The notes under the pieces: generated by a model
Seen by the model: the letters and a program-made list of their open reading frames with translations, nothing else
The model's database searches: none
What the model was told of the DNA's origin: nothing
Made by a program: the position numbers and the translations under genes
Shown here: one piece after another, positions 23,957 to 35,025 of the stretch
Position numbering within the stretch: position 1 is the first letter of the stretch
Layout of the letters: each line of letters opens with the position of its first letter
Assembly (NCBI GenBank): GCA_963668555.2
Contig: CAXXIC010000001.1
Location: 1,493,662-1,557,661 of the forward strand
Direction: 5' to 3'
Origin: Bacteroidales bacterium
Lineage (GTDB): Bacteria; Bacteroidota; Bacteroidia; Bacteroidales; UBA7332
Length of the DNA: 64,000 nt

Positions 23957-25134
23957 AAGGTCTCTCTACCCCAATCAACAGTAACGGCAAAAGCCATACA
24001 CCTTTCGAAAATCTCATAACTGAGTTCGGGAGGTAGAGCTCCGTTGGTTGCTATATCGGTATTCTCTCTCTGGAAAGATCTTTTATCCGAAATATAGGGT
24101 TGATAGGCTTTGATGAAATGGTGAAAGAGTTCCTCGGGTGGATTTTTCAGCTCATCCGCATCGGATATGCCGATAACCACCTCAACACCGGTTATATTCA
24201 GAAAGCGCTCAGTATATAAAGTCAACTTCTGCATGCTTTCGGGGTTATTGCTTGTAATGTGATAGAATGTTTCAGTAACCGGGTTCTCTATTATCGAGAG
24301 AACGGTTTCCGTAAAATAATCCACAGGAATCAGGTTGATTTCACCCTCATTCGGAATGAAGATGCGGATAGGAAGATGCAGCACGCCGTCCTCATTAATA
24401 CATATGCCAAACTCCGCCGATTTCGTCCCATTATTATTCTTGATATCATCGAGATAAATATCGCGAATATATAACATGGACTTAACGGGGTAGTAAAGCG
24501 CATTGAACCGGAGTGATTTTCCCGTTACAGAATCCCCGTATACAATTGAGGGACGTATGATGGTATATGGAATATCGCTCTCCCGGCACCTTTCGCTTAA
24601 TATTTTCTCAGCACGAGCCTTACTCTCCTCATAAACGTTAGTAAAATGCGCTGAATTCACAGGTGCTTCGTGACAGTCTATATTGTCGGTACCGGCTGCA
24701 TAAGCGGTACTGATATAATGAATACAGCGAGTTCTACTTTTCACTGCAAAATTGAGAATCTCGACAAGGCTCTCTACATTTGAATTCATTACTCTTTCGC
24801 GGTGCTTCTCGGCAAAGCAGGTATCAGATGCACAGTGAATGATACTTAATCCCCTGCTGCATAAATTCGCATATTCATCATCGCCAAACCCCAACTTGTT
24901 TTTTAGAAAATCGGTTTCATAAAACTCAAGCTGTCCCTCTAAATGTTCAATCCCGAACCATTTGAGTAGCTTCCTGATTCTCTCCTTTAGGGATTCTCTA
25001 CCAGAGGGTCGACCCGCAATGACAACGCCTTTACCCTTTAAGAGAAGGCCCGCCATAATATGACTCCCCAGAAAACCTGTCGCACCGGTGAGCAAATACT
25101 TGTCATTATCCCCGGTCAATAACATTCCATTCAT
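23953..25134 (-). CDS. Extended SDR, thioester-reductase/fatty-acyl-reductase-like (NAD_binding_4 type)
   Basis: [19 protein letters not shown] and RPSIVYG motifs; stop overlaps the rnhB stop (23953-23956). Confidence 0.8.
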
Positions 25135-25137
25135 AGG

Positions 25138-26988
25138 TCATTTTCTATTAGTTGAATAGAGAAAACTCTCCTTTCGACTGAATCCTTGTGTAAATACATA
25201 CCTTATCCAGGTTACAGTGCCGGTTTCGGCCGAATAGCGTTCGATCATCATTCCGGCCTCCATCATAGCCTGTTGCGTCTTTGTCTTTTCATCCGGATCA
25301 TTATGATCCAAATAGTAGTCATACTCAAACACGCAGCGTTTTCCGTTATCCAGAGGTGTGATAAAGCCGTAATCGTTCTTTAATCCGTGGCTGTCTGCGA
25401 TGCGTTTGAACTCACGGTTAATCTCCGCGATAAGTTGATTGTCGATGGGGAGATAAATGATCATGGCAAGCACATGTTTCTCACGTCCCATTCGCGAGCT
25501 GAGAATCCGGAACATATTGAGCCACACCGGATCGGTCATCTCCGGTCTTGAATAAAGTTTCTCGAAGAAAGGCCGAAGTTCCGGATTAACGTCGCACACA
25601 AGCTGCACCGGCGAAGGTGCAAGCGCCGCCTCGGCAAGATCGGGAAAATGTTTAAGTCCCAGGTACGAGAATGGCTTTTCGTCGCCCAACTCATTCAGGA
25701 GGTCAAGCCATTTGGCCGAAGCCAGAGAAGGCAACCCCAACGTGAGAGTCCTGATCATACGATTGTCGAAGTAGTGATGCCCCATCTCTTTTATCGAACG
25801 GAGCGCATATTTATCCCCGATCACTTGCACCAGGTATTCGATCTTCAGTTTATACCGGAATGTATCCTTCACCTTCGCGGCCAATTTTTTCGTGGGGGAG
25901 AGAAACGTCGATATATACTCTCCGCCCAACACGCCAATGGCTAGTCCTATCCGCCGCATGGCACACTCCCGGGCAAAATCAAGTGCTCCGCCCAACGATT
26001 CGAAGGGTACAAATGCGGCACTTTCATCTGAGGTTACAGCATGCAATCTGATATAGGCCGATGAACAAATCCCCGGCACCTGTGGATCTTCCTTCTTGAA
26101 CGCAAAAAGATTGGGTGCCGATTTATCACTCAGTAGAAATACATTCCCGTCATGTCCTACAAACTCCGCATCGATATAATTATCTGCTGCTGTACCATAG
26201 CTCGCCGAAAAGGTGGAGAATACTCCCGAACACATGATATTGGCACAAATCAGCGCGGAAGGCTCGGCCACATTTACGCGAAATCCACGTTTCACGGCAT
26301 CTTTCTGAAGATCAAAAGCGGAAACGCCAGGTCCGACCTTTACCCACCAGTTTTTTTCATCAAACTCAATGGTCTTCATCCGGCCCAAATCGATCACCGC
26401 ACCTTCACTCATCACAAAACCCATCACACTCGATCCGTTTCCTCTTACGGCATACGGTATTTGATGACTATTCAGCAGTTTAATCACAGCTGATATTTCG
26501 GCAGTGGAATTCGGCATGATCACATAATCAGGCATACGCGGTTCTGCCACCGGGCAGGGATCATGTGAATAGGTAAGTGCAATCACGCGGTCATTGGTTG
26601 CCCAGTACTCTCCCACTAATTCTTTAAGACCGGCGAGGACGCTGTCTTGTTCAGCCGAAAGTACTTCTCCGCCATTTTCCAGGTGAAGTCTCACGTATTC
26701 TTTCAGCGCTTTCATCACAACCGATGGCTTCATCTCTGTCACAAAATAACATTGGTAGTCACATTTGCCGCAAAGGTCACAGCTATCGGCAATCTCTATG
26801 CACTTTTCCGTCACAGGAATCCTATTTTCTACCAAGGCTGCATAGAGATCCATCCTCCCCTGAGGATAAAAACTTACATAATGTTTCTCCGCACCCGATT
26901 TGCATAATCCCGTTCCCAGGAAATCAATCTTACACATGGCATAATGCCGGCAATTTTTTGCTGTTTTCAACACATCATCCATATGCAT
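25138..26988 (-). CDS. FAD-binding (VAO/PCMH-type) oxidoreductase with N-terminal FeS motif
   Basis: CDLCGKCDYQC ferredoxin-type motif; PDYVIMP, VRGNGSS and VKVGPGV FAD-domain motifs; ends 3 nt upstream of the SDR start. Confidence 0.8.
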   Translation of the reverse strand: MHMDDVLKTAKNCRHYAMCKIDFLGTGLCKSGAEKHYVSFYPQGRMDLYAALVENRIPVTEKCIEIADSCDLCGKCDYQCYFVTEMKPSVVMKALKEYVRLHLENGGEVLSAEQDSVLAGLKELVGEYWATNDRVIALTYSHDPCPVAEPRMPDYVIMPNSTAEISAVIKLLNSHQIPYAVRGNGSSVMGFVMSEGAVIDLGRMKTIEFDEKNWWVKVGPGVSAFDLQKDAVKRGFRVNVAEPSALICANIMCSGVFSTFSASYGTAADNYIDAEFVGHDGNVFLLSDKSAPNLFAFKKEDPQVPGICSSAYIRLHAVTSDESAAFVPFESLGGALDFARECAMRRIGLAIGVLGGEYISTFLSPTKKLAAKVKDTFRYKLKIEYLVQVIGDKYALRSIKEMGHHYFDNRMIRTLTLGLPSLASAKWLDLLNELGDEKPFSYLGLKHFPDLAEAALAPSPVQLVCDVNPELRPFFEKLYSRPEMTDPVWLNMFRILSSRMGREKHVLAMIIYLPIDNQLIAEINREFKRIADSHGLKNDYGFITPLDNGKRCVFEYDYYLDHNDPDEKTKTQQAMMEAGMMIERYSAETGTVTWIRYVFTQGFSRKESFLYSTNRK

Positions 26989-27142
26989 ACTTGCTTTTTG
27001 TTTAGTTCACCAAGGATACCACATTACACCTAACATTTTCAGGTTGTACTCTGTTCGTAAATGCCTACTGAAATCCTGAATACAAAAAAGGAGAGCTCTT
27101 ACTTTATTATAGCAACAATAGATTTCGTAATTCTACAAAAAA

Positions 27143-27219: not shown

Positions 27220-28182
27220 TTAGAACAACAACCTGAGTTGTCTTCCTCTGGCCTCTAATTCCTGCTTATACTTCCGGCCTTCCGGCGTTTCCATGGGTTT
27301 ATCATTCTTGAAAAAGCTGATTACCATTGCTATCCGATAAGCCGTAATCACTTCTTCGCCCAGATTATCAATTTTACGGGGCATCTCCAGAATACAATTG
27401 ATGCAGGTACCATTTTTGAACTCTACATCTCCTAACTGAACCAGCGATTTGAACTCCGCCGATTTCATACCAAAGTCCAGGATCTGTCCATTGTAGATTC
27501 CTTTCCAGCTGTAATTGCCGTTTTTTAATACCGGAGAAATAATTTCGATCACCGCATTCTCGTCTACGAGGGTCGGCAATTCATCTGTTTTAAGAATGTA
27601 TCGGGTGAACTCTTTCCGGAGAATTGTATATTCGTTTAATAATGTTTTACCGTCTTTACCCAGCGTCTTCAGACCAATCTTATTTATTTTAAAACAAGCC
27701 AAAAGTGTTTCGTAGAAATTCGATTTGCGGCGGTTGATCTTATTATTGCGATTCAACTGAGAAGCTACATACTGGTTTTCAAGACTCAATTTCTGAATAT
27801 CCTGCATTAGCTTGACCATTTCGGGATCTTCCCGATCTACTTCTGCAAACACTTTGTGAAATAGTCCGTCAACTTTTGCATTCAGGGGAGTACCCAGCAC
27901 AACCAACATCAAGGAAGTGACAAATGATGCCGTAATAGGGGCTCTTTTAGTTTCGGACTTCTTGACTATCTTGAATCGTTGACGAAATCCACCTTTAGTC
28001 AATGCTTCACTTTCAATCCGGATATCAACTTTAAGAATGGAGGAAATCTCTTTCATCAACGCTAAAAATTCTCTCTCACTGTTATTCCGGATGGTGGCAT
28101 CCATGGAATGCGAATTGTCATTAAAAGAATAATGCAACTCGAATTTACCGGAGATCTCTTCTTTACGGGGTTTTATAGACAT
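27220..28182 (-). CDS. Hypothetical protein, 320 aa
   Basis: Long ORF with its own terminator; central hydrophobic helix; beta-rich C-terminal half; no family recognised with certainty. Confidence 0.8.
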   Translation of the reverse strand: MSIKPRKEEISGKFELHYSFNDNSHSMDATIRNNSEREFLALMKEISSILKVDIRIESEALTKGGFRQRFKIVKKSETKRAPITASFVTSLMLVVLGTPLNAKVDGLFHKVFAEVDREDPEMVKLMQDIQKLSLENQYVASQLNRNNKINRRKSNFYETLLACFKINKIGLKTLGKDGKTLLNEYTILRKEFTRYILKTDELPTLVDENAVIEIISPVLKNGNYSWKGIYNGQILDFGMKSAEFKSLVQLGDVEFKNGTCINCILEMPRKIDNLGEEVITAYRIAMVISFFKNDKPMETPEGRKYKQELEARGRQLRLLF

Positions 28183-28406
28183 GCAACTACTGAAAATTGA
28201 GTTTGGGTTAATGGAATATCGGCTATTCTGGATCTATCTCTTGCTATATCAAACGATTGGCGAATCAAAAGAGCTTTACTATTGGCCTTATGAATCGCAA
28301 CAGAACTACGATCCTATCAAATTCAATGCAAATCTATTAATAAATATCTGGAACTCGAATTTTTATTGATAAGTAATGAGAACTAAATAACATCATATCT
28401 TTAAAA

Positions 28407-28508
28407 AGTTATCAACAGCAATCGAACAATTGTTGATAACTATGTTAAACACTACTACTTCTGCATATTACCAAGATATATAGGATTGATAAATGTAAGT
28501 TATAAACA
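28407..28508. repeat. 102-bp dispersed repeat, copy A, with head-to-head AGTTATCAACA/TGTTGATAACT boxes
   Basis: Gap-free alignment to 34501-34602: 34/37 in the palindromic head, 72/102 overall by manual count. Confidence 0.85.
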
Positions 28509-28584
28509 AATAGATCCAGGGCAAACGCATTAAAAATTCAACTATTACTCACTGTACGAATACCCCAGGGCAGCGATAACCCTT

Positions 28585-28616
28585 TTTGTTATTTCTATTC
28601 GGAATAATTATCTTTG
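28585..28616 (+). promoter_or_regulatory. Canonical Bacteroidetes promoter TTTG-N20-TATCTTTG
   Basis: Both -33 and -7 elements are present, 23 nt before ATG 28640. Confidence 0.7.
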
Positions 28617-28639
28617 TGATTATCAAAACATCAACCTCT

Positions 28640-28870
28640 ATGATGCGCGTTGCAGGAATTACTTTCGAAAAAGACTCACAAGGCGAGAATCGCTTTGTGA
28701 AGATCGATCTGAAAAAACAAGCCGAACGAATCAATCCGATATTAGATGAGATGGGCGCGCTCGAAGCTGATGAGTTCGACAAAGACTAGGAAGATAGTAT
28801 TACCGGAGATGAACTGGTAAATAGAGTTTCTGAGAACATAAGAAACTACTACCGGAATGAGCATCGTTAG
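28640..28870 (+). pseudogene. Small antitoxin-like gene interrupted by an in-frame TAG (28787-28789)
   Basis: Frame continues after TAG as EDSITGDELVNRVSENIRNYYRNEHR to a stop that overlaps the next ATG by 14 nt. TAG is one base from TGG (DKDWE). Confidence 0.55.
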
Positions 28871-29032
28871 GTACGATTCCAGGGTATGCATTATATCTGC
28901 ATCCGATCTCCCAAAAGTAAAAGTCGGATTTCAGCTACCTGGTACATTTTCTTACATCATAAGAAGGATCGCTATTTGATCCGCTATATTACCAACAATC
29001 ATGTTGCCGCTCATCATATTCGCGGATTGTAG
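28857..29032 (+). pseudogene. Truncated, frameshifted partner (toxin-like) gene
   Basis: MSIVRYDS start is in one frame; the C-terminal SATWYIFLHHKKDRYLIRYITNNHVAAHHIRGL is in another frame. Confidence 0.5.
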
Positions 29033-29093
29033 TTTTTGATAATTTTTTCAATCTGTCGACCTGCTCAACTTACATCTATATCTCCTCTTAAAT

Positions 29094-29996
29094 ATGTCAA
29101 ATTTAGAATCCCTGCAACGATACCTACTCCTTATTAAAAAAGTAAGAACCACACCGTATTGTACGAAAGCTGAACTTATTCAATACCTGGATGACCAACT
29201 AGATATTAGTAACGACAAGATTCGTGTACCGTCAGATAGAACGTTTGTCCGAATCATCGGCGAAATCAGAAGTTTTCTGGGAATAAGTATAGAATATTGC
29301 CGGAAAAATAGAGGCTACCATATCCCCGTAGACGAAGAACAAAATTCTATTATTGAGAATATTCTTGAACCGCTTGATTTATTATACGCAATGGTTGGTG
29401 TAGAGAGACTCCCGGAATACGTTTTTGTAGAAAAACGACGATCAAGAGGCACCGAGCATATCCCCGCAATCATGCTTGCCATAAAGGAGAATAAATATAT
29501 CTCATTCCTCTATTCAAAATTTCACCCCGAAGTCACCGACGTAAAAGTGATTCAGTCTATTGCACTGAAAGAAAGTCGGGGCAGGTGGTATCTCTTAGGC
29601 TTTGACAAAAGTGGGGATAAACTCAAATCTTACGGTCTCGATAGGATAAGCAATATGGAAATGCTCGGAGGGGTATTCAAACCCAAGGGAAATATCGACA
29701 TATCCGAAAAGTATGAACATTGTTTTGCTATGTTTACAGGTGACTCCGCTCCCGAAAAGATCATTCTTTCGTTTGATGAAAGAGATGGACATTACGTTGA
29801 AACAATGCTAATCCATCCTTCACAGAATTTATACAAACAAAGCGACCGCGTGATTGTGGAGTTGTATATGTGCATCACCCCGGATCTTATTATGGAACTA
29901 ATGTCTCGCAGTTGGTCTTTGACTGTGATCGAACCTCAATCTCTAAAAGATGAAGTGAACAAGATTTATCGTGAAGCACTTGAACGAAACAGTTAA
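29094..29996 (+). CDS. WYL-domain transcriptional regulator (HTH-WYL-WCX)
   Basis: SDRTFVR..EI HTH, LKESRGRWYLLG, SYGLDRI, and C-terminal HPSQ and VIEPQSL motifs. Confidence 0.95.
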   Translation: MSNLESLQRYLLLIKKVRTTPYCTKAELIQYLDDQLDISNDKIRVPSDRTFVRIIGEIRSFLGISIEYCRKNRGYHIPVDEEQNSIIENILEPLDLLYAMVGVERLPEYVFVEKRRSRGTEHIPAIMLAIKENKYISFLYSKFHPEVTDVKVIQSIALKESRGRWYLLGFDKSGDKLKSYGLDRISNMEMLGGVFKPKGNIDISEKYEHCFAMFTGDSAPEKIILSFDERDGHYVETMLIHPSQNLYKQSDRVIVELYMCITPDLIMELMSRSWSLTVIEPQSLKDEVNKIYREALERNS

Positions 29997-30023
29997 ATCC
30001 AACGTTACGTCTTATATTAATAC

Positions 30024-30073
30024 AGAAAGTGGCTGAAAGTCTGGGATAATCCCCAAATATTCAACCACTTTTT
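30024..30073. terminator. Bidirectional hairpin between WYL and Trp-repeat genes
   Basis: AAAGTGGCTGAA...TTCAACCACTTT arms with an inner GGGAT/ATCCC stem. Confidence 0.6.
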
Positions 30074-30085
30074 TAGTTACAATCC

Positions 30086-30886
30086 TTACAATGTCGCTAA
30101 AAACTCTTCTATCTCGGTCAGTTTTCTATATGGCTTCTGCTCTGCCCGCATCAGTCTTTCCCAAAGATGTGATTCCCGTAAATGCTCTATATCGTCAGTT
30201 GGAATATATTCGTTGAAAAACTCCAACATCTTCTTCGACCATTCTATTTCTGGATTATCTATCAACTTAGCCCAATCCCAATATTCTTTAAATTTACAAA
30301 TCAGTCGAATCTGCCACTTTAGTTTTCTGTTTTCAGACAGAGCGCTCCAATCCAATTGATCTTTAAAAAGCTCCAGTGTTCCAGTATTGAAAAATGGATC
30401 GCAGTATCTGAGAAAGAAACTTTCCGAGAAGATGTTCCAATCGATCTTATCTTGATATTGAACCAGCAACTCTCTACTCCAGGGGAAAAGGATATTCGCC
30501 GATAGCGCTGACCAATCGATCAGACCCGAATAATGCTTTACAATATCGGGAGTAATATTATCATCACCGCAGATCGCTGCCCAATCGAGTTTGACATGAT
30601 ACCTGGCAACGAAATCGACATAGTCGGCATAAGAAATAAAGCCACGGTGAGCAATAATCATGGAAAGATTTTGCCAATCCCAACGCTCCTCGAATAATTC
30701 AATTAACTCGCTCGACCAGGGCAATGAGGTATTACCGGATAACTCCTTCCAGTCAAATCGGTCCTGATTCTCAATCAAAAACTCTTTACTCCAGTTGATT
30801 TCTGTCGACTCTGAAATTCTTTGCCAAAGCTCTTTTTCTTTTTCCGCTTCGAAAATTGCGAAAGCTGTTGTTTGCAATTCTGCCAT
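30086..30886 (-). CDS. Tryptophan-rich ~23-aa repeat protein
   Basis: Recurrent DWxxLSxNxxLxWSxxL unit: DWKELSGNTSLPWSSEL, DWSALSANILFPWSREL, DWSALSENRKLKW, DWAKLIDNPEIEWSKKM. Confidence 0.85.
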   Translation of the reverse strand: MAELQTTAFAIFEAEKEKELWQRISESTEINWSKEFLIENQDRFDWKELSGNTSLPWSSELIELFEERWDWQNLSMIIAHRGFISYADYVDFVARYHVKLDWAAICGDDNITPDIVKHYSGLIDWSALSANILFPWSRELLVQYQDKIDWNIFSESFFLRYCDPFFNTGTLELFKDQLDWSALSENRKLKWQIRLICKFKEYWDWAKLIDNPEIEWSKKMLEFFNEYIPTDDIEHLRESHLWERLMRAEQKPYRKLTEIEEFLATL

Positions 30887-30921
30887 AACTTGTTTCTCCT
30901 CTATTTATCGGTTAATGATAT

Positions 30922-30957
30922 TGCAAAGGTAGAAGGTGGGTATGCCAGAATGTGGCG
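30922..30957 (-). promoter_or_regulatory. Promoter with palindromic operator CGCCA-N5-TGGCA, 11 nt upstream of -7 TACCTTTG
   Basis: Identical geometry to the site at 32346-32381. Confidence 0.7.
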
Positions 30958-30984
30958 GAGTGAAAAAAGAAAGAGAAATAAAAA

Positions 30985-31023
30985 AAGTGACTGCTTTTAG
31001 AACCGTACTAAAAACAGTCACTT
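30985..31023 (-). terminator. Terminator after the 31039-32232 gene
   Basis: AAGTGACTG-CTTTTAG / CTAAAAA-CAGTCACTT arms with an adjacent A run. Confidence 0.75.
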
Positions 31024-31038
31024 ATGCATTAACCGTGT

Positions 31039-32232
31039 TTAATTATTGCTTTTAGAACTATTTAAACTTCTTGGCATAAGCTGAAGTCGTATATTCTTAC
31101 CAACAAGATCTAATTCATTCTTTAGCCCTTGAATGAAAGAATGATCCAATTCTTTTATAATAGCTTTGCTCATTTCCACATTAAACCTGTCTATATCACT
31201 ATATTTTAAATATATAATATCAGAAAGCTCTTGCAATCTAGGTAGATTATCTCTTAACCTCAATAATACCTTATCCATTGATTCCACATGATCTAGTGAG
31301 ACATATCTAACATCAGAAATAAAATCTTTGAATGAATGGAATTCTTCTTCATATTTGAAAAACAATTCAAATTCAGCAGAATCGTTGCCTTTTTTAATAA
31401 AAACGCATCCGTCTTTTACAATAAAGCTACTTATTTGTTTTGTGGATATTATTTCACCATCTTTCGTATAATACTCTATTTTATCAATTTGATTATTACA
31501 CCAATCAGAGAAATGATCTTTATCGATTTGATTAAAAAGTCGAGTAAAGAATGATATTTTGCTTTGCGAGTATCTTTTTCGTTCTTGTGTCTGTAAACGA
31601 AACTGAAATTTCTGGATTAAGGACTGGTTGTCAAATTCTTCAATTAAGTAGTTATACTTTGTCGTTTTGCTTAATCTTTTATTGGCTTTATATTTAGATA
31701 AGGTGTGAACCTCTTCTAAACTTGAAATAATTTCTTCTTGCTGCTTCGGTGAAATATCAGCATTTTTGCAAATAACTTCGTTTTGGTTAGCTATTACATA
31801 GAAAATATACATTTCATTTTGGTTCTTGAAAAATCCACATTCGTAATCAGGATTGATTTCACTATTAATAGTTGAAACAAGTCCTTCTAATGTTAAATTA
31901 TTATCTCCATTTTCATTCCATTGATTCGAAAGATAGATATAATTATGATCTTTTTCAGGAAAGTAATCACTGATGTCAATATTATTAATAAAGCAACGCT
32001 TCCTTAACTCTACTTCTTCTGCCTCTTCTCGAAAAACAGTAAACAAGGCTATATTCCCTATCGATTGAATCTTATATTCAGCCACATGTTTTTTACTTCT
32101 TTCACTGTTCACTTTAATTTTCTGGCTTTCACTTTTTATCAGTTTTTCCAATATTCCATTATTAGCAGCCCACAAAATCACTTTCAATGCAAATCCTTGA
32201 CGTTTGCTATCAGAGATACTTAAGTTGTTCAT
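31039..32232 (-). CDS. AT-rich hypothetical protein with a putative C-terminal HNH (His-Me finger) nuclease motif
   Basis: SLDHVES ... NIRLQLMPRSLNSSKSN resembles the DH...NL.LL...NSSKSN motif of GmrSD/DUF1524-type HNH domains. Confidence 0.6.
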   Translation of the reverse strand: MNNLSISDSKRQGFALKVILWAANNGILEKLIKSESQKIKVNSERSKKHVAEYKIQSIGNIALFTVFREEAEEVELRKRCFINNIDISDYFPEKDHNYIYLSNQWNENGDNNLTLEGLVSTINSEINPDYECGFFKNQNEMYIFYVIANQNEVICKNADISPKQQEEIISSLEEVHTLSKYKANKRLSKTTKYNYLIEEFDNQSLIQKFQFRLQTQERKRYSQSKISFFTRLFNQIDKDHFSDWCNNQIDKIEYYTKDGEIISTKQISSFIVKDGCVFIKKGNDSAEFELFFKYEEEFHSFKDFISDVRYVSLDHVESMDKVLLRLRDNLPRLQELSDIIYLKYSDIDRFNVEMSKAIIKELDHSFIQGLKNELDLVGKNIRLQLMPRSLNSSKSNN

Positions 32233-32345
32233 TGTTATTTATTATTATGTTAATATTAAACGAATCGCAAGTTACCAAAACATTTTAATTCTCTTTGTTT
32301 AAATCCAATTTAATTACCAATCAAAAATCTTGATCCTGATTCTGT

Positions 32346-32381
32346 GGCAAAATTACCCCTTCTCTACGCCAATATATGGCG
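32346..32381 (-). promoter_or_regulatory. Promoter with perfect palindromic operator CGCCA-N5-TGGCG, 11 nt upstream of -7 TAATTTTG
   Basis: Identical geometry to the site at 30922-30957. Confidence 0.7.
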
Positions 32382-32599
32382 ATGTAAAGAATAAAATTTC
32401 AAATAGTGTTCTGAATTAGCTATTATTTCAAACAACAACACAGTTAACTTCCGCCCAATATTCAACACGATTTCTTTTTCCACCTCAAAACATCAATCTC
32501 TAATAGTCTTTATTTTGCACCCTCGCAAACAAAACAAAATCCCGACCCACCCTCCGGCAGATCGGGACTTCCCTTAAAAATCATCAAACAATCCCTACC

Positions 32600-33346
32600 C
32601 TACTTCGCACCCGAAGTATTGGTGGCGCTATTTGATTCCGTCTTCGATGACTTAGGGTGCGGAATACTCAGCACAGACGAATCAAATCGGTCGTTCAGAT
32701 TCTTCTGCAAGGCCACCCAGTCAGGTTGTTTTTCGGTAGAGACAACCATACTGCCCACCCAAAGTTCGTACTCAAGCATATCAGCCTGCAACGCTTCGCG
32801 AATCGGAGCCGTGGCAGCCGCCTCGCGATACTCCAACCGGGAGGTGCGGGCATCACGATAGTATTTCTCCACGATCTGAGCCGACGCCTCAAGTCCGCTT
32901 AGGATATTCTCCATTTTCAGTACAACGATCGCATCGGCATAATCCGGCAGTCGCAATACCTTAAGCGCATTGGCAAGATTTATAATCTGTTCGGGGCGCT
33001 TTTGCTTGCTGTAATTGAAGAGAAACGGCTTCATCCGATTATAAAGAGGTTCAGCAATCGCCTTTTCCGCATCATCGAAAGAGCCAAGCTTTCCCTTTAG
33101 TCCATTCATCACCTTTGCGACCAGGCTGTTACGTTTCAGCATTTCAGCATCACGCATCCGACAGATTTCGTTGTCATTTTCCGTCTGAAGGGCATCATTC
33201 ATGGTTGTCAACCGAAGTACCAGATTTTGGAATCTGGCGTTGTTTTGCACTTCGGGTAAAACCGTTTCTTTCCCATCGTTTACGATCATGCTTGCGCAGT
33301 TTACCAACACGAGGTTGGACATTCTTGATAAAATGTAATTTTTCAT
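32600..33346 (-). CDS. DUF6261-like helical protein
   Basis: 248-aa all-helical ORF resembling Bacteroidetes DUF6261 proteins (recognised by overall pattern, not confirmed); TCCCGA/TCGGGA hairpin downstream at about 32541-32568. Confidence 0.55.
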   Translation of the reverse strand: MKNYILSRMSNLVLVNCASMIVNDGKETVLPEVQNNARFQNLVLRLTTMNDALQTENDNEICRMRDAEMLKRNSLVAKVMNGLKGKLGSFDDAEKAIAEPLYNRMKPFLFNYSKQKRPEQIINLANALKVLRLPDYADAIVVLKMENILSGLEASAQIVEKYYRDARTSRLEYREAAATAPIREALQADMLEYELWVGSMVVSTEKQPDWVALQKNLNDRFDSSVLSIPHPKSSKTESNSATNTSGAK

Positions 33347-33590
33347 TACTGTAAATGTTTAGTAAAAGTTTAGTTCATAAATAATCCTCCATCTTCATTG
33401 TCATAATTAGTTTTTTAATTTGGCATTTCTCACAGCAGATTATTTATCAGGGGCGGAGGTACAGCAGGTGTTGAACACCACCGGCTTGATTTTGCCCTTC
33501 GATAAATAAGTATACTGTGGCGATTTTTGCTTACAGCAGCCTTCCTACCAGACAGGCCAGTGTATATCACTGATTACCTGAGATAAACAG

Positions 33591-33780
33591 CTTTGCTTGG
33601 TTTTCGCAAACGTGTTTCGCTCTTCGGAAAATTGCTTTTGCGATTTTCGCAAACATGATTTTCCGTATGGAAAATGACCTTTGTTTTTTTCGCAATGGCT
33701 ATTTTCTCATAGGAAAATGAGCTTTGCGAATTTTACAAAGGCAGTTCGCAGTAGCGCGAATGACCTTTGCGAAACCCAAA
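33591..33780. repeat. Degenerate tandem array, 43-bp period, about 4.5 units, each made of two short palindromes
   Basis: TTTTCGCAA at 33601, 33644 and 33687; GGAAAA at 33626, 33669 and 33712; TGA ends at 33677, 33720 and 33763. Confidence 0.8.
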
Positions 33781-33968
33781 TACATGCGTTACCGTCCGTT
33801 TTTGGGCTTGCCGATCAATACAGGAACATCCTAAATAAAAAGAAAAGCGCTTCGACAGATTCCCGCGCGTGGCCGATTGTCATACTATCATGTTTTTCAC
33901 ATTATGCGTCATCTCTGTGGGAAGACATTTTCCTCTATTCGGATTCCTTTTCTCAGTAAATGGGGTAT

Positions 33969-34050
33969 AAAATGCTTCGCTAAGCATCTTGGGTGAATAA
34001 CCTAAACCGTTCTTTGATTACCTTAAACAACTAATATAACCTAATGATCT
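33969..34050 (-). ncRNA. Candidate sRNA related to 946-1010
   Basis: Minus strand TATTAGTTGTTTAAGGTAATCAAAGAACGGTTTAGGTTATT, then hairpin AAGATGCTT-AGCG-AAGCATTTT. The -7-like TATATTGCA is imperfect. Confidence 0.35.
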
Positions 34051-34500
34051 GATGCAATATAATGGAATTACTTTAATTTACAATTACATATTTTTACGCT
34101 TATAAGCGATATGCATAATGTTTTTTACCCATCTCATACGCTTTATGCATCGTTTTTGCGTTAATTCGTAAGTTTATACCCGAAGGCCACTTTCAAATTA
34201 AAACATGTAGCTACCCTAAATATACGAATCTGTAAGTTTCAATCAGGTTTCTTTAGTATTGTATTTTCCTTAAAATAACATCATTTTGTTGACAAGTTTT
34301 CTATCATGGAGAATAATCATGAGAAATACCCATTCTTTATCGGAGTGATTGAAGTGTAAAAAGGGAAGATAGTAATAAGAATAGGACAGAGTAAACGGAT
34401 TTTCTTGTAAGTCAATGGTAGCTATATGCGCTAGCAGACAAACACCGAAAAACAGAATGGAGGATTAGAAAAATGAGGGATATGAACACACACCATCTAA

Positions 34501-34602
34501 AGTTATCAACAGCAATCAGACAAGTGTTGATAACTATATTATATCATACATAATCAATGGAATGCCCGGATATATAAACTATAAAAAGGTAAGTTTTGAA
34601 CA
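34501..34602. repeat. 102-bp dispersed repeat, copy B
   Basis: Same orientation as copy A, offset 6094 bp. Confidence 0.85.
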
Positions 34603-35025
34603 GGCATGTTAATAAAGTGAGAAGAAATAAACCTCTAAGAAAACGCGAATTTCCAGGAGCATTTTACACAAAACAGATATAACTACACGCTCGCCTGACC
34701 CAGATGCACAAGCTGTTTTTCACATTTACTGTCATCTATCAGTGCGGCTGCCTTTCCTTACGCTCTGTAAAGACAATCGTCACGCACTATATTGGAAGTA
34801 ATCAGGAAAACGCTCTGCACATTCAATGCTGAGCAAGAAGAGAGGAGTGGCTACGAACAATCGATAGCCTTGAAAAAATTGAGAAGTATTCTCTGAAAAA
34901 CAAATGAGACTATCTCCCGAATTAGAGACAGCCTCATTTATCACATTATTCTCAAATCTTGGTTGCACATCCGGATAGATAAAATACAAACTGCAATCCA
35001 CTTAAAACACATACTTTATTCAAAA

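Follow-up and report, generated by a model that had tools for sequence, protein, structure and literature searches.

To our knowledge, the roles of DnaA away from the replication origin (titration, reactivation and control of transcription) have been worked out only in Escherichia coli, Bacillus subtilis and a few other bacteria, and none of them for Bacteroidota. The outside end of the insertion sequence (IS) IS50, as in Tn5, contains a host DnaA box just inside the transposon end. In B. subtilis, the binding of DnaA to DnaA-box clusters (Ishikawa et al, 2007) is set by the density and quality of the boxes, and the neighbouring genes sda, ywlC and yydA are raised or lowered (PMC2533591). The core of the DnaA-reactivating sequences (DARS) DARS1 and DARS2 of E. 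coli has boxes I and II in opposite orientation and 5 bp apart, with box III placed head-to-tail with box II (PMC6868365). Here, we analysed a window of 64,000 nt, which is the whole stretch from 1,493,662 to 1,557,661 of contig CAXXIC010000001.1 (C1) in assembly GCA_963668555.2 of a Bacteroidales bacterium (UBA7332; genome G000), where an initial annotation had pointed to two copies of a short element, named here copy A (C1 1.522 Mb) and copy B (1.528 Mb), on either side of a 6.1-kb block with a WYL-type regulator gene. We consider it fairly probable that both copies are duplicated, non-origin DnaA-box modules, most likely bound by the DnaA of this organism. The genome was compared with a sister species (G002, ~85% gene identity) and a further relative (G001); it carries the markers GH115, BACON, DUF6261 and DUF6266, and the nearest public relatives bear the label Dysgonomonadaceae.

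The regions 28407–28508 and 34501–34602 aligned without gaps with 72 identities in 102 positions, and the initial annotation was exact to the base in this respect as well as for the head of the element, where the copies agreed at 32 of 35 positions, or 34 of 37 when the next two bases were included. The offsets of the GATATATA, GTAAGTT and AACA blocks were identical in both copies, as had been described. The 65-nt tail past the head retained 38 identities (58%), a value reached by none of 20,000 shuffles. A gapped local alignment stretched the homology further left, to the module starts given in Table 1, with a score of 91 against 36 ± 6 in shuffles, and the full homologous unit was ~134 bp. 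The repeats were 71% identical overall with a patchy pattern of conservation: the two arms of 11 nt each were the same at all 22 positions and the spacer between them at 10 of 13. The window contained the pattern AGTTATCAACA-N10-16-TGTTGATAACT two times only, 100 dinucleotide shuffles did not yield it, and the 5.3-Mb genome contained just the two module copies, both of them non-coding, together with one related and denser cluster at C1:1474156. The perfect boxes of each copy form a convergent (head-to-head) pair, 22 bp from centre to centre, which corresponds to two helical turns and places them on one helix face, and one or two weaker boxes follow 60–90 bp downstream. With up to one mismatch allowed, copy A has four boxes in 145 bp and copy B has three to four. 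The conserved GTAAGTT..AACA block is, by its sequence, a third DnaA-like box that reads TTATAAACA in copy A and TTTTGAACA in copy B.

The box consensus used here was taken from the probable origin of the same genome. Along C1, the cumulative GC skew is lowest at 1.99–2.00 Mb, and the AT-rich gap C1:2002050–2003700 (L139–L141), lying between a TrmH/SpoU-like gene and nadA, contains three TTTTCAACA-TTATCAACA doublets with about ten further boxes or near-matches. This gap is the probable chromosomal oriC, built from TTWTCAACA boxes. TTATCAACA had been described as one mismatch away from the DnaA box; its identity as a DnaA box holds, but the mismatch falls away, since TTATCAACA is the origin word of this genome itself. 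Published work on the origin of the Cyanothece linear chromosome counts the same word among the DnaA boxes (PMC4674748), and in phage T5 it is given as a variant DnaA box (bioRxiv 10.1101/866236). Clusters of the canonical TTATCCACA were found nowhere in the genome analysed. When all 200-bp windows of the genome were ranked by TTATCAACA boxes with up to one mismatch, C1:1474156 came first, oriC second and copy A third, with copy B within the top 20. One further “cluster,” at C1:1282345, falls within a coding sequence and probably arose by chance. The oriC doublet TTTTCAACATTATCAACA as an 18-mer was not conserved in 30 relatives.

The dnaA gene is present at C1:364070–365509, 1.6 Mb from the probable oriC, and origins distant from dnaA are on record in Bacteroidetes as usual for the phylum (PMC4755523). 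Domain IV of the encoded DnaA reads KDHATVLH (DHATV) as against (R/K)DHTTV in the solved proteins of E. coli, B. subtilis, M. tuberculosis and Aquifex, and this Thr435-to-Ala change parallels the C-to-A change at box position 6. Because Ala replaces Thr435, which is among the six base-contacting residues of DnaA (PMC2533591), an altered preference at box position 6 is plausible.

The modules themselves were ruled out as oriC by the comparison with GC skew that the initial annotation had proposed: the skew was monotonic across the window with no switch in polarity, and the genome's own probable origin is at ~2.002 Mb. The probable oriC is 475 kb from the modules, and the three box clusters of the genome are 475–528 kb from it. 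No unwinding element or DnaA-trio run common to copies A and B was found. A CTA-CTA-CTT run after box A2 was considered as a DnaA-trio or unwinding module; it is not kept in copy B and was therefore treated as chance.

The sister species has a single palindrome at the orthologous place, upstream of its orthologue of the candidate defence gene PDC-S42, with both 11-nt arms perfect. The spacer is 13 bp long as in copies A and B, and its sequence is unrelated to theirs (TTTGATAACTATA, itself box-like and containing TTGATAACT). A TTTTCAACA box follows downstream at a distance different from that of the third box in A and B, the tail is unrelated, and the conservation is thus confined to the two boxes. 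As the arms are perfect in A, B and the sister species while spacer and tail have diverged, these comparisons indicate that selection acts on the predicted boxes and not on the spacer or tail, in agreement with the earlier suggestion of selection on binding sites. Copy B is best explained by a duplication, covering ~134 bp of copy A and younger than the split of the two species, because A and B share a spacer that the sister species does not have. The module was absent from the other six genomes of the genus, its form with the conserved spacer gave no matches in metagenome contigs, and an exact protein look-up for other strains returned the same arrangement only.

The inverted pair alone is far more widespread. 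With one genome taken per species, GTTATCAACA-N11-15-TGTTGATAAC was found at at least 119 loci against ~10 expected by our own estimate from composition, and the pair is at least tenfold enriched across public genomes. Among the matches listed, the dnaA gene was within 8 kb in 40 of the 119 loci, and the spacers often held canonical TTATCCACA or TGTGGATAA boxes. Since the spacers hold canonical boxes and dnaA is often near, the inverted pair of putative boxes is a normal part of DnaA-box arrays in many phyla. A further case of the pair being duplicated along with its flank was seen in a Dysgonomonadaceae metagenome-assembled genome (MAG), where a unit made of the 3' end of a TonB-dependent receptor gene and the inverted box pair forms a 253-bp tandem duplication (L043:3278 and 3531).

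The palindrome could instead be the operator of another dimeric factor, such as the WYL-WCX regulator, an antitoxin-like protein of 49 aa or a factor from another locus, with its likeness to DnaA boxes being coincidental. Such an operator would suit the perfect arms, which extend two bases beyond the 9-mer, the conserved spacer, the 22-bp spacing appropriate for a dimer on one helix face and the location of copy A upstream of a regulator gene, and the arms of the C1:1474167 site differ by a symmetric G-to-C/C-to-G change. The surveys of gene families argued otherwise. WYL homologues were present in 98 of 401 Bacteroidales genomes, and none of the 29 best homologues inspected had the box pair within 500 nt upstream; likewise, all eight distant PDC-S42 homologues were operonic and without the palindrome. 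Both a WYL operator, as in BrxR/CapW-like autoregulation, and a PDC-S42 family element were rejected on these counts, and the sister species keeps its palindrome without the neighbouring island genes. These findings indicated that the palindrome is independent of the WYL and PDC-S42 gene families. In addition, the arms are the origin word, and among the matches listed canonical DnaA boxes are interspersed with this palindrome beside dnaA across phyla. We therefore regard the operator of another factor as quite unlikely. Of the two kinds of binder that the initial annotation had named for a multi-site regulatory module, DnaA is strengthened by the origin word, by the third box and by the conservation confined to the two boxes in the sister species, and another dimeric protein is weakened by the WYL homologues and by the palindrome that stands without the island.

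If DnaA binds the two perfect convergent boxes, the weaker flanking boxes would help in the formation of a small oligomer, which could tune the flanking promoters according to the level or nucleotide state of DnaA. Alternatively, the high-affinity sites of both copies would simply buffer or hold free DnaA. At copy A, the complex would be 70–105 nt upstream of the -7 box of the PDC-S42 gene and box A0 abuts the -33 region, because of which a modulation of this promoter is possible; the rightward promoter of copy A would then be a weak one of the TAAGTT type. These effects downstream of binding, either promoter control or buffering, we infer more weakly than the binding itself.

Several observations weigh against binding by DnaA or against a function built on it. 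The perfect inverted pair was found in 4 of 61 relatives within the order and is therefore not a conserved regulon element. The 10 of 13 matches in the spacer exceed the needs of DnaA itself, which may only reflect the age of the duplication. The placement of A0 with respect to the PDC-S42 promoter differs in the sister species, which has a terminator hairpin in between. No boxes were found upstream of the dnaA gene of this genome, so classic DnaA autoregulation is not visible in it, and three to four boxes per ~145 bp are at the low end for stable DnaA binding in B. subtilis (PMC2533591). Finally, no convincing gene or RNA was found downstream of copy B, where no open reading frame (ORF) exceeds 42 aa.

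This last result also bears on the idea that the module is the promoter of an unannotated small RNA or peptide, in which the palindrome would serve as hairpin or operator and a TAAGTT(A/T)T -7-like element would drive a short transcript on the plus strand. The words TAAGTTAT in copy A and TAAGTTTT in copy B are present at equal offset, and certain ISAs1-family elements, described below, have a true TAnnTTTG box 38–39 nt after the same palindrome that drives their transposase gene. However, the -7 words of the modules are without the conserved final G and without a -33 TTTG, and the DNA downstream of A is unrelated to that downstream of B. An Rfam search of 26–38 kb (E <= 1) returned spurious miRNA matches only and none for the modules, and a structured RNA was rejected because only a trivial hairpin was present and folding of the whole modules was no better than that of shuffles (z = -0.45 and -0.73). 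Such a promoter is thus very unlikely.

Table 1. Positions (in window coordinates) of the two modules, their putative boxes and blocks, and the features next to them.
Feature	Position	Strand	Remarks
Module copy A	28375..28508	+	Extent from local alignment to B; between PDC-S42 gene (-) and small ORF/WYL genes (+)
Box A0, TATTGATAA (reads TTATCAATA)	28364..28372	-	1 mismatch; just upstream of PDC-S42 promoter -33 region
Box A1, TTATCAACA	28409..28417	+	Perfect match to box of probable oriC
Box A2, TGTTGATAA	28431..28439	-	Perfect; head-to-head with A1, 13-nt spacer
GATATATA block, copy A	28475..28482	+	Offset +68, equal in copy B
GTAAGTT block	28495-28501 (A), 34589-34595 (B)		Equal offset; AACA ends each copy
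Box A3, TTATAAACA	28500..28508	+	1 mismatch; within GTAAGTT..AACA block; overlaps weak -7-like word TAAGTTAT
Module copy B	34472..34602	+	Within 1.68-kb non-coding stretch 33347-35025
Box B1, TTATCAACA	34503..34511	+	Perfect
Box B2, TGTTGATAA	34525..34533	-	Perfect
GATATATA block, copy B	34569..34576	+	
Box B3, TTTTGAACA	34594..34602	+	Word shared with one oriC box at C1:2002053
Box B4, TGTTAATAA (TTATTAACA)	34607..34615	-	1 mismatch; head-to-head with B3 across 4 nt; copy B only
PDC-S42 candidate defence gene	27220..28182	-	320 aa; PADLOC PDC-S42 match 1e-100; copy A 225-260 nt upstream of start codon
-7 element TAGATTTG of PDC-S42 gene (Bacteroidota type)	28329..28336	-	In stretch 94% conserved with sister species
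Solo ISAs1-type terminal inverted repeat relic CAGGGCAAACGCATTAAAAA	28517..28536	+	9 nt right of module A; without partner repeat
Bacteroidota promoter TTTG ... TATCTTTG	28585..28616	+	Serves 49-aa ORF 28640-28789; separate from module
WYL-WCX regulator gene	29094..29996	+	Inside bracketed block

Copy A is in a divergent gap, and the order to its right is the IS terminal-repeat relic, the promoter, the 49-aa ORF and the WYL-WCX gene, so that 650 nt, including another promoter and ORF, separate the palindrome from the WYL start codon. The PDC-S42 protein also showed a weak match to the NCBIfam “LAPAL motif putative phage structural protein,” and among 16 genomes of the family its gene was present in this genome and the sister species only. 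The bracketed block had been labelled as toxin–antitoxin, WYL, HNH and DUF6261; the WYL-WCX and DUF6261 labels were recovered, but those of toxin–antitoxin and HNH were not reproduced by Pfam, NCBIfam or PADLOC. In a PHROGs search, the Trp-repeat protein and the WYL domain alone gave matches, to families of unknown function. The stretch of 1.68 kb around copy B runs from the DUF6261 gene side to the 3' end of the GH115 gene without a credible ORF. It contains a 43-bp palindromic tandem array (~33591–33825), AT-rich DNA and copy B, is unusually long for non-coding DNA of a bacterium, and has a layout that loosely resembles an iteron-type origin. A second indel nearby was seen at the FAD-oxidase/SDR gene pair (23960–27086), which is missing from the otherwise collinear locus of the sister species.

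The location of the copies on both sides of the block had suggested that they are recombination or insertion ends, that is, Campbell-type joints formed when a circular or transposable 6.1-kb segment with a module of its own recombined with a module in the chromosome, or the subterminal parts of a decayed mobile element. Both copies are indeed at synteny breaks. The homology with the sister species stops at 28368, and that of the GH115 flank with both G001 and G002 sets in again precisely at the stop codon (35026); the block also has a lower GC content (0.34–0.41). When an empty site was looked for, the sister species had one copy with the left flank conserved and different DNA on the right, and the GH115 flank was elsewhere in both G001 and G002. 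However, this is no clean empty site: the right flank in the sister species consists of a DUF6266 remnant, MazEF and S41-DUF3316-ParC, and the S41-ParC genes sit 73 kb further on in the genome analysed. The absence of an integrase from the window was confirmed by a search for tyrosine recombinases (PF00589), the nearest of which is at C1:1612632, and the island ORFs had no recombinase domain. The block was without significant transposase or DUF6266 remnants beside A or B, and the whole of it was without similarity to plasmid or phage DNA. The patchy identity of 71% is unlike that of fresh att sites or target duplications, and terminal inverted repeats are missing from the outer side of both copies.

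The ISAs1-type relic next to module A also speaks for island ends. The first 14 nt of CAGGGCAAACGCATTAAAAA agree at every position with the terminal repeat of an ISAs1-family IS found in a Dysgonomonadaceae MAG, and MAGs of termite-gut Bacteroidales carry the same palindrome as a subterminal part of multicopy ISAs1-family elements. An ISAs1-family IS or miniature inverted-repeat transposable element (MITE) at this place was nevertheless rejected, as there is one repeat-like word only, in direct and not bracketing orientation, and no transposase remnant. Taken together, the synteny breaks at both copies and the IS relic still speak for the earlier suggestion of island ends, whereas a recombinase or transposase and a clean empty site were not found, and we regard it as unlikely that A and B are recombination or insertion ends. 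This explanation and binding by DnaA are not mutually exclusive, since such elements can carry DnaA boxes.

The palindrome in the termite-gut MAGs was seen in eight contigs (L033:48, L059:2148, L045:547, L070:801, L080:115, L095:55, L103:55 and L105:2749). In these, a CAGGG[TC][CA]AACGCAT terminal repeat is followed 13–20 nt further inside by the inverted box pair, and after another 38–39 nt comes the TAnnTTTG promoter that serves an ISAs1-family transposase gene (PF13808). The break of the contigs ~50 nt inside suggests that the IS is multicopy. Because these ISAs1 elements hold the palindrome inside the terminal repeat, putative DnaA-box pairs are carried by mobile DNA in Bacteroidales. The genome analysed has at least eight copies of its own 1148-bp ISAs1 element, with terminal repeat CAGGGCAACCGCATCAAA and an open frame for a 374-aa transposase (e.g., C1:282341–283488), and this element is without the DnaA-box pair.

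No DnaA-box cluster of the genome is denser than the related one at C1:1474156–1474213 (L003:1490–1550), which packs five boxes into 58 bp at a 12–13-bp period, two of them forward and three reverse. It is 48 kb upstream of copy A and 19.5 kb before the start of the window. A DUF6266 gene ends 56 nt before it, and an AlaX-like gene follows ~255 nt downstream. The sister species has a cluster of three boxes at the same place, and G001 has none. As a candidate for a datA-like site, this cluster would be better than copies A and B. No flank homology of the modules with this locus or with the sister species was found beyond the known extent. In the sister species, a 63-aa ORF (L012:9969–10160), 110 nt from the palindrome, looks like a C-terminal remnant of DUF6266 (Pfam E = 0.003; 29% identity to the end of the L003 protein). 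Since a DUF6266 remnant adjoins the palindrome of the sister species, the module on the PDC-S42 side may derive from the cluster on the DUF6266/AlaX side. A repetitive extragenic palindrome (REP)/MITE-like inverted repeat, GGTTGACTTTAG...CTAAAGTCAACC, is dispersed in both genomes (L003:1363–1494, C1:1595380–1595446 and many other places); one copy adjoins a RAYT-like gene in L003, and another is ~90 bp from the point where synteny with the sister species resumes at the S41 peptidase gene.

A bolder proposal, to which we give little credence, would be that the convergent DnaA-box pair is a portable cassette by which mobile and accessory DNA of Bacteroidales recruits the host initiator. The pair inside the ISAs1 terminal repeat, ~40 nt upstream of the transposase promoter, would then act like the DnaA box of the IS50 end. 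Recombination between A and B would release a circle having one module, the 43-bp palindromic array and the AT-rich kilobase. The layout of such a circle is origin-like, and the replication, copying or rearrangement of the block might therefore depend on DnaA. Alternatively, the status of DnaA would gate both transposition and the expression of accessory genes. The link of the module to rearrangement boundaries and IS ends is intriguing but unproven.

The locus offers three compact candidate non-origin DnaA sites in one genome, two of which adjoin candidate defence or regulator genes, and it belongs to Bacteroidota, a dominant gut phylum, with a DnaA that reads a variant box. The same site is also linked to the ends of ISAs1-family ISs. 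If DnaA binds, the modules would be probes for the box specificity of Bacteroidales DnaA, in view of the T435A change, with TTATGTTCA as the box-mutant form of TTATCAACA for controls, and they would also be probes for the coupling of replication status to accessory-gene expression and genome rearrangement. Without binding by DnaA, the element would be an orphan operator.

Compared with the known systems, the modules share their 9-mer and an AT-rich non-coding setting with the oriC regions predicted for Bacteroidales (DoriC/Ori-Finder; PMC4755523), from which they differ in having neither a GC-skew switch nor a shared unwinding element. Like datA of E. coli, they are box clusters a few hundred kilobases from oriC that could hold DnaA, although datA requires an IHF site and at least four boxes in a set arrangement. 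The likeness to DARS is that of a short non-origin module with two opposed boxes and a third one, and the version of the sister species has the order forward, reverse, reverse. However, the spacing of the perfect pair is 13 bp in both copies and in the sister species, as against ~5 bp in DARS, a gap approached by the weak B3/B4 pair alone (4 nt), and a DARS-type element was rejected on this spacing. The IS50 end finds its parallel in the termite-gut ISAs1 elements, which have the inverted pair just inside the terminal repeat, unlike copies A and B, which are without bounding terminal repeats or transposase and have a solo relic beside A only. The DnaA-box clusters of B. subtilis have tandem runs of boxes, whereas the modules described here have three to four boxes with a perfect convergent pair, are duplicated and flank genes of accessory or defence type; as intergenic groups of boxes of the host's own type at a distance from the origin, these clusters are nevertheless the nearest studied counterpart of copies A and B.

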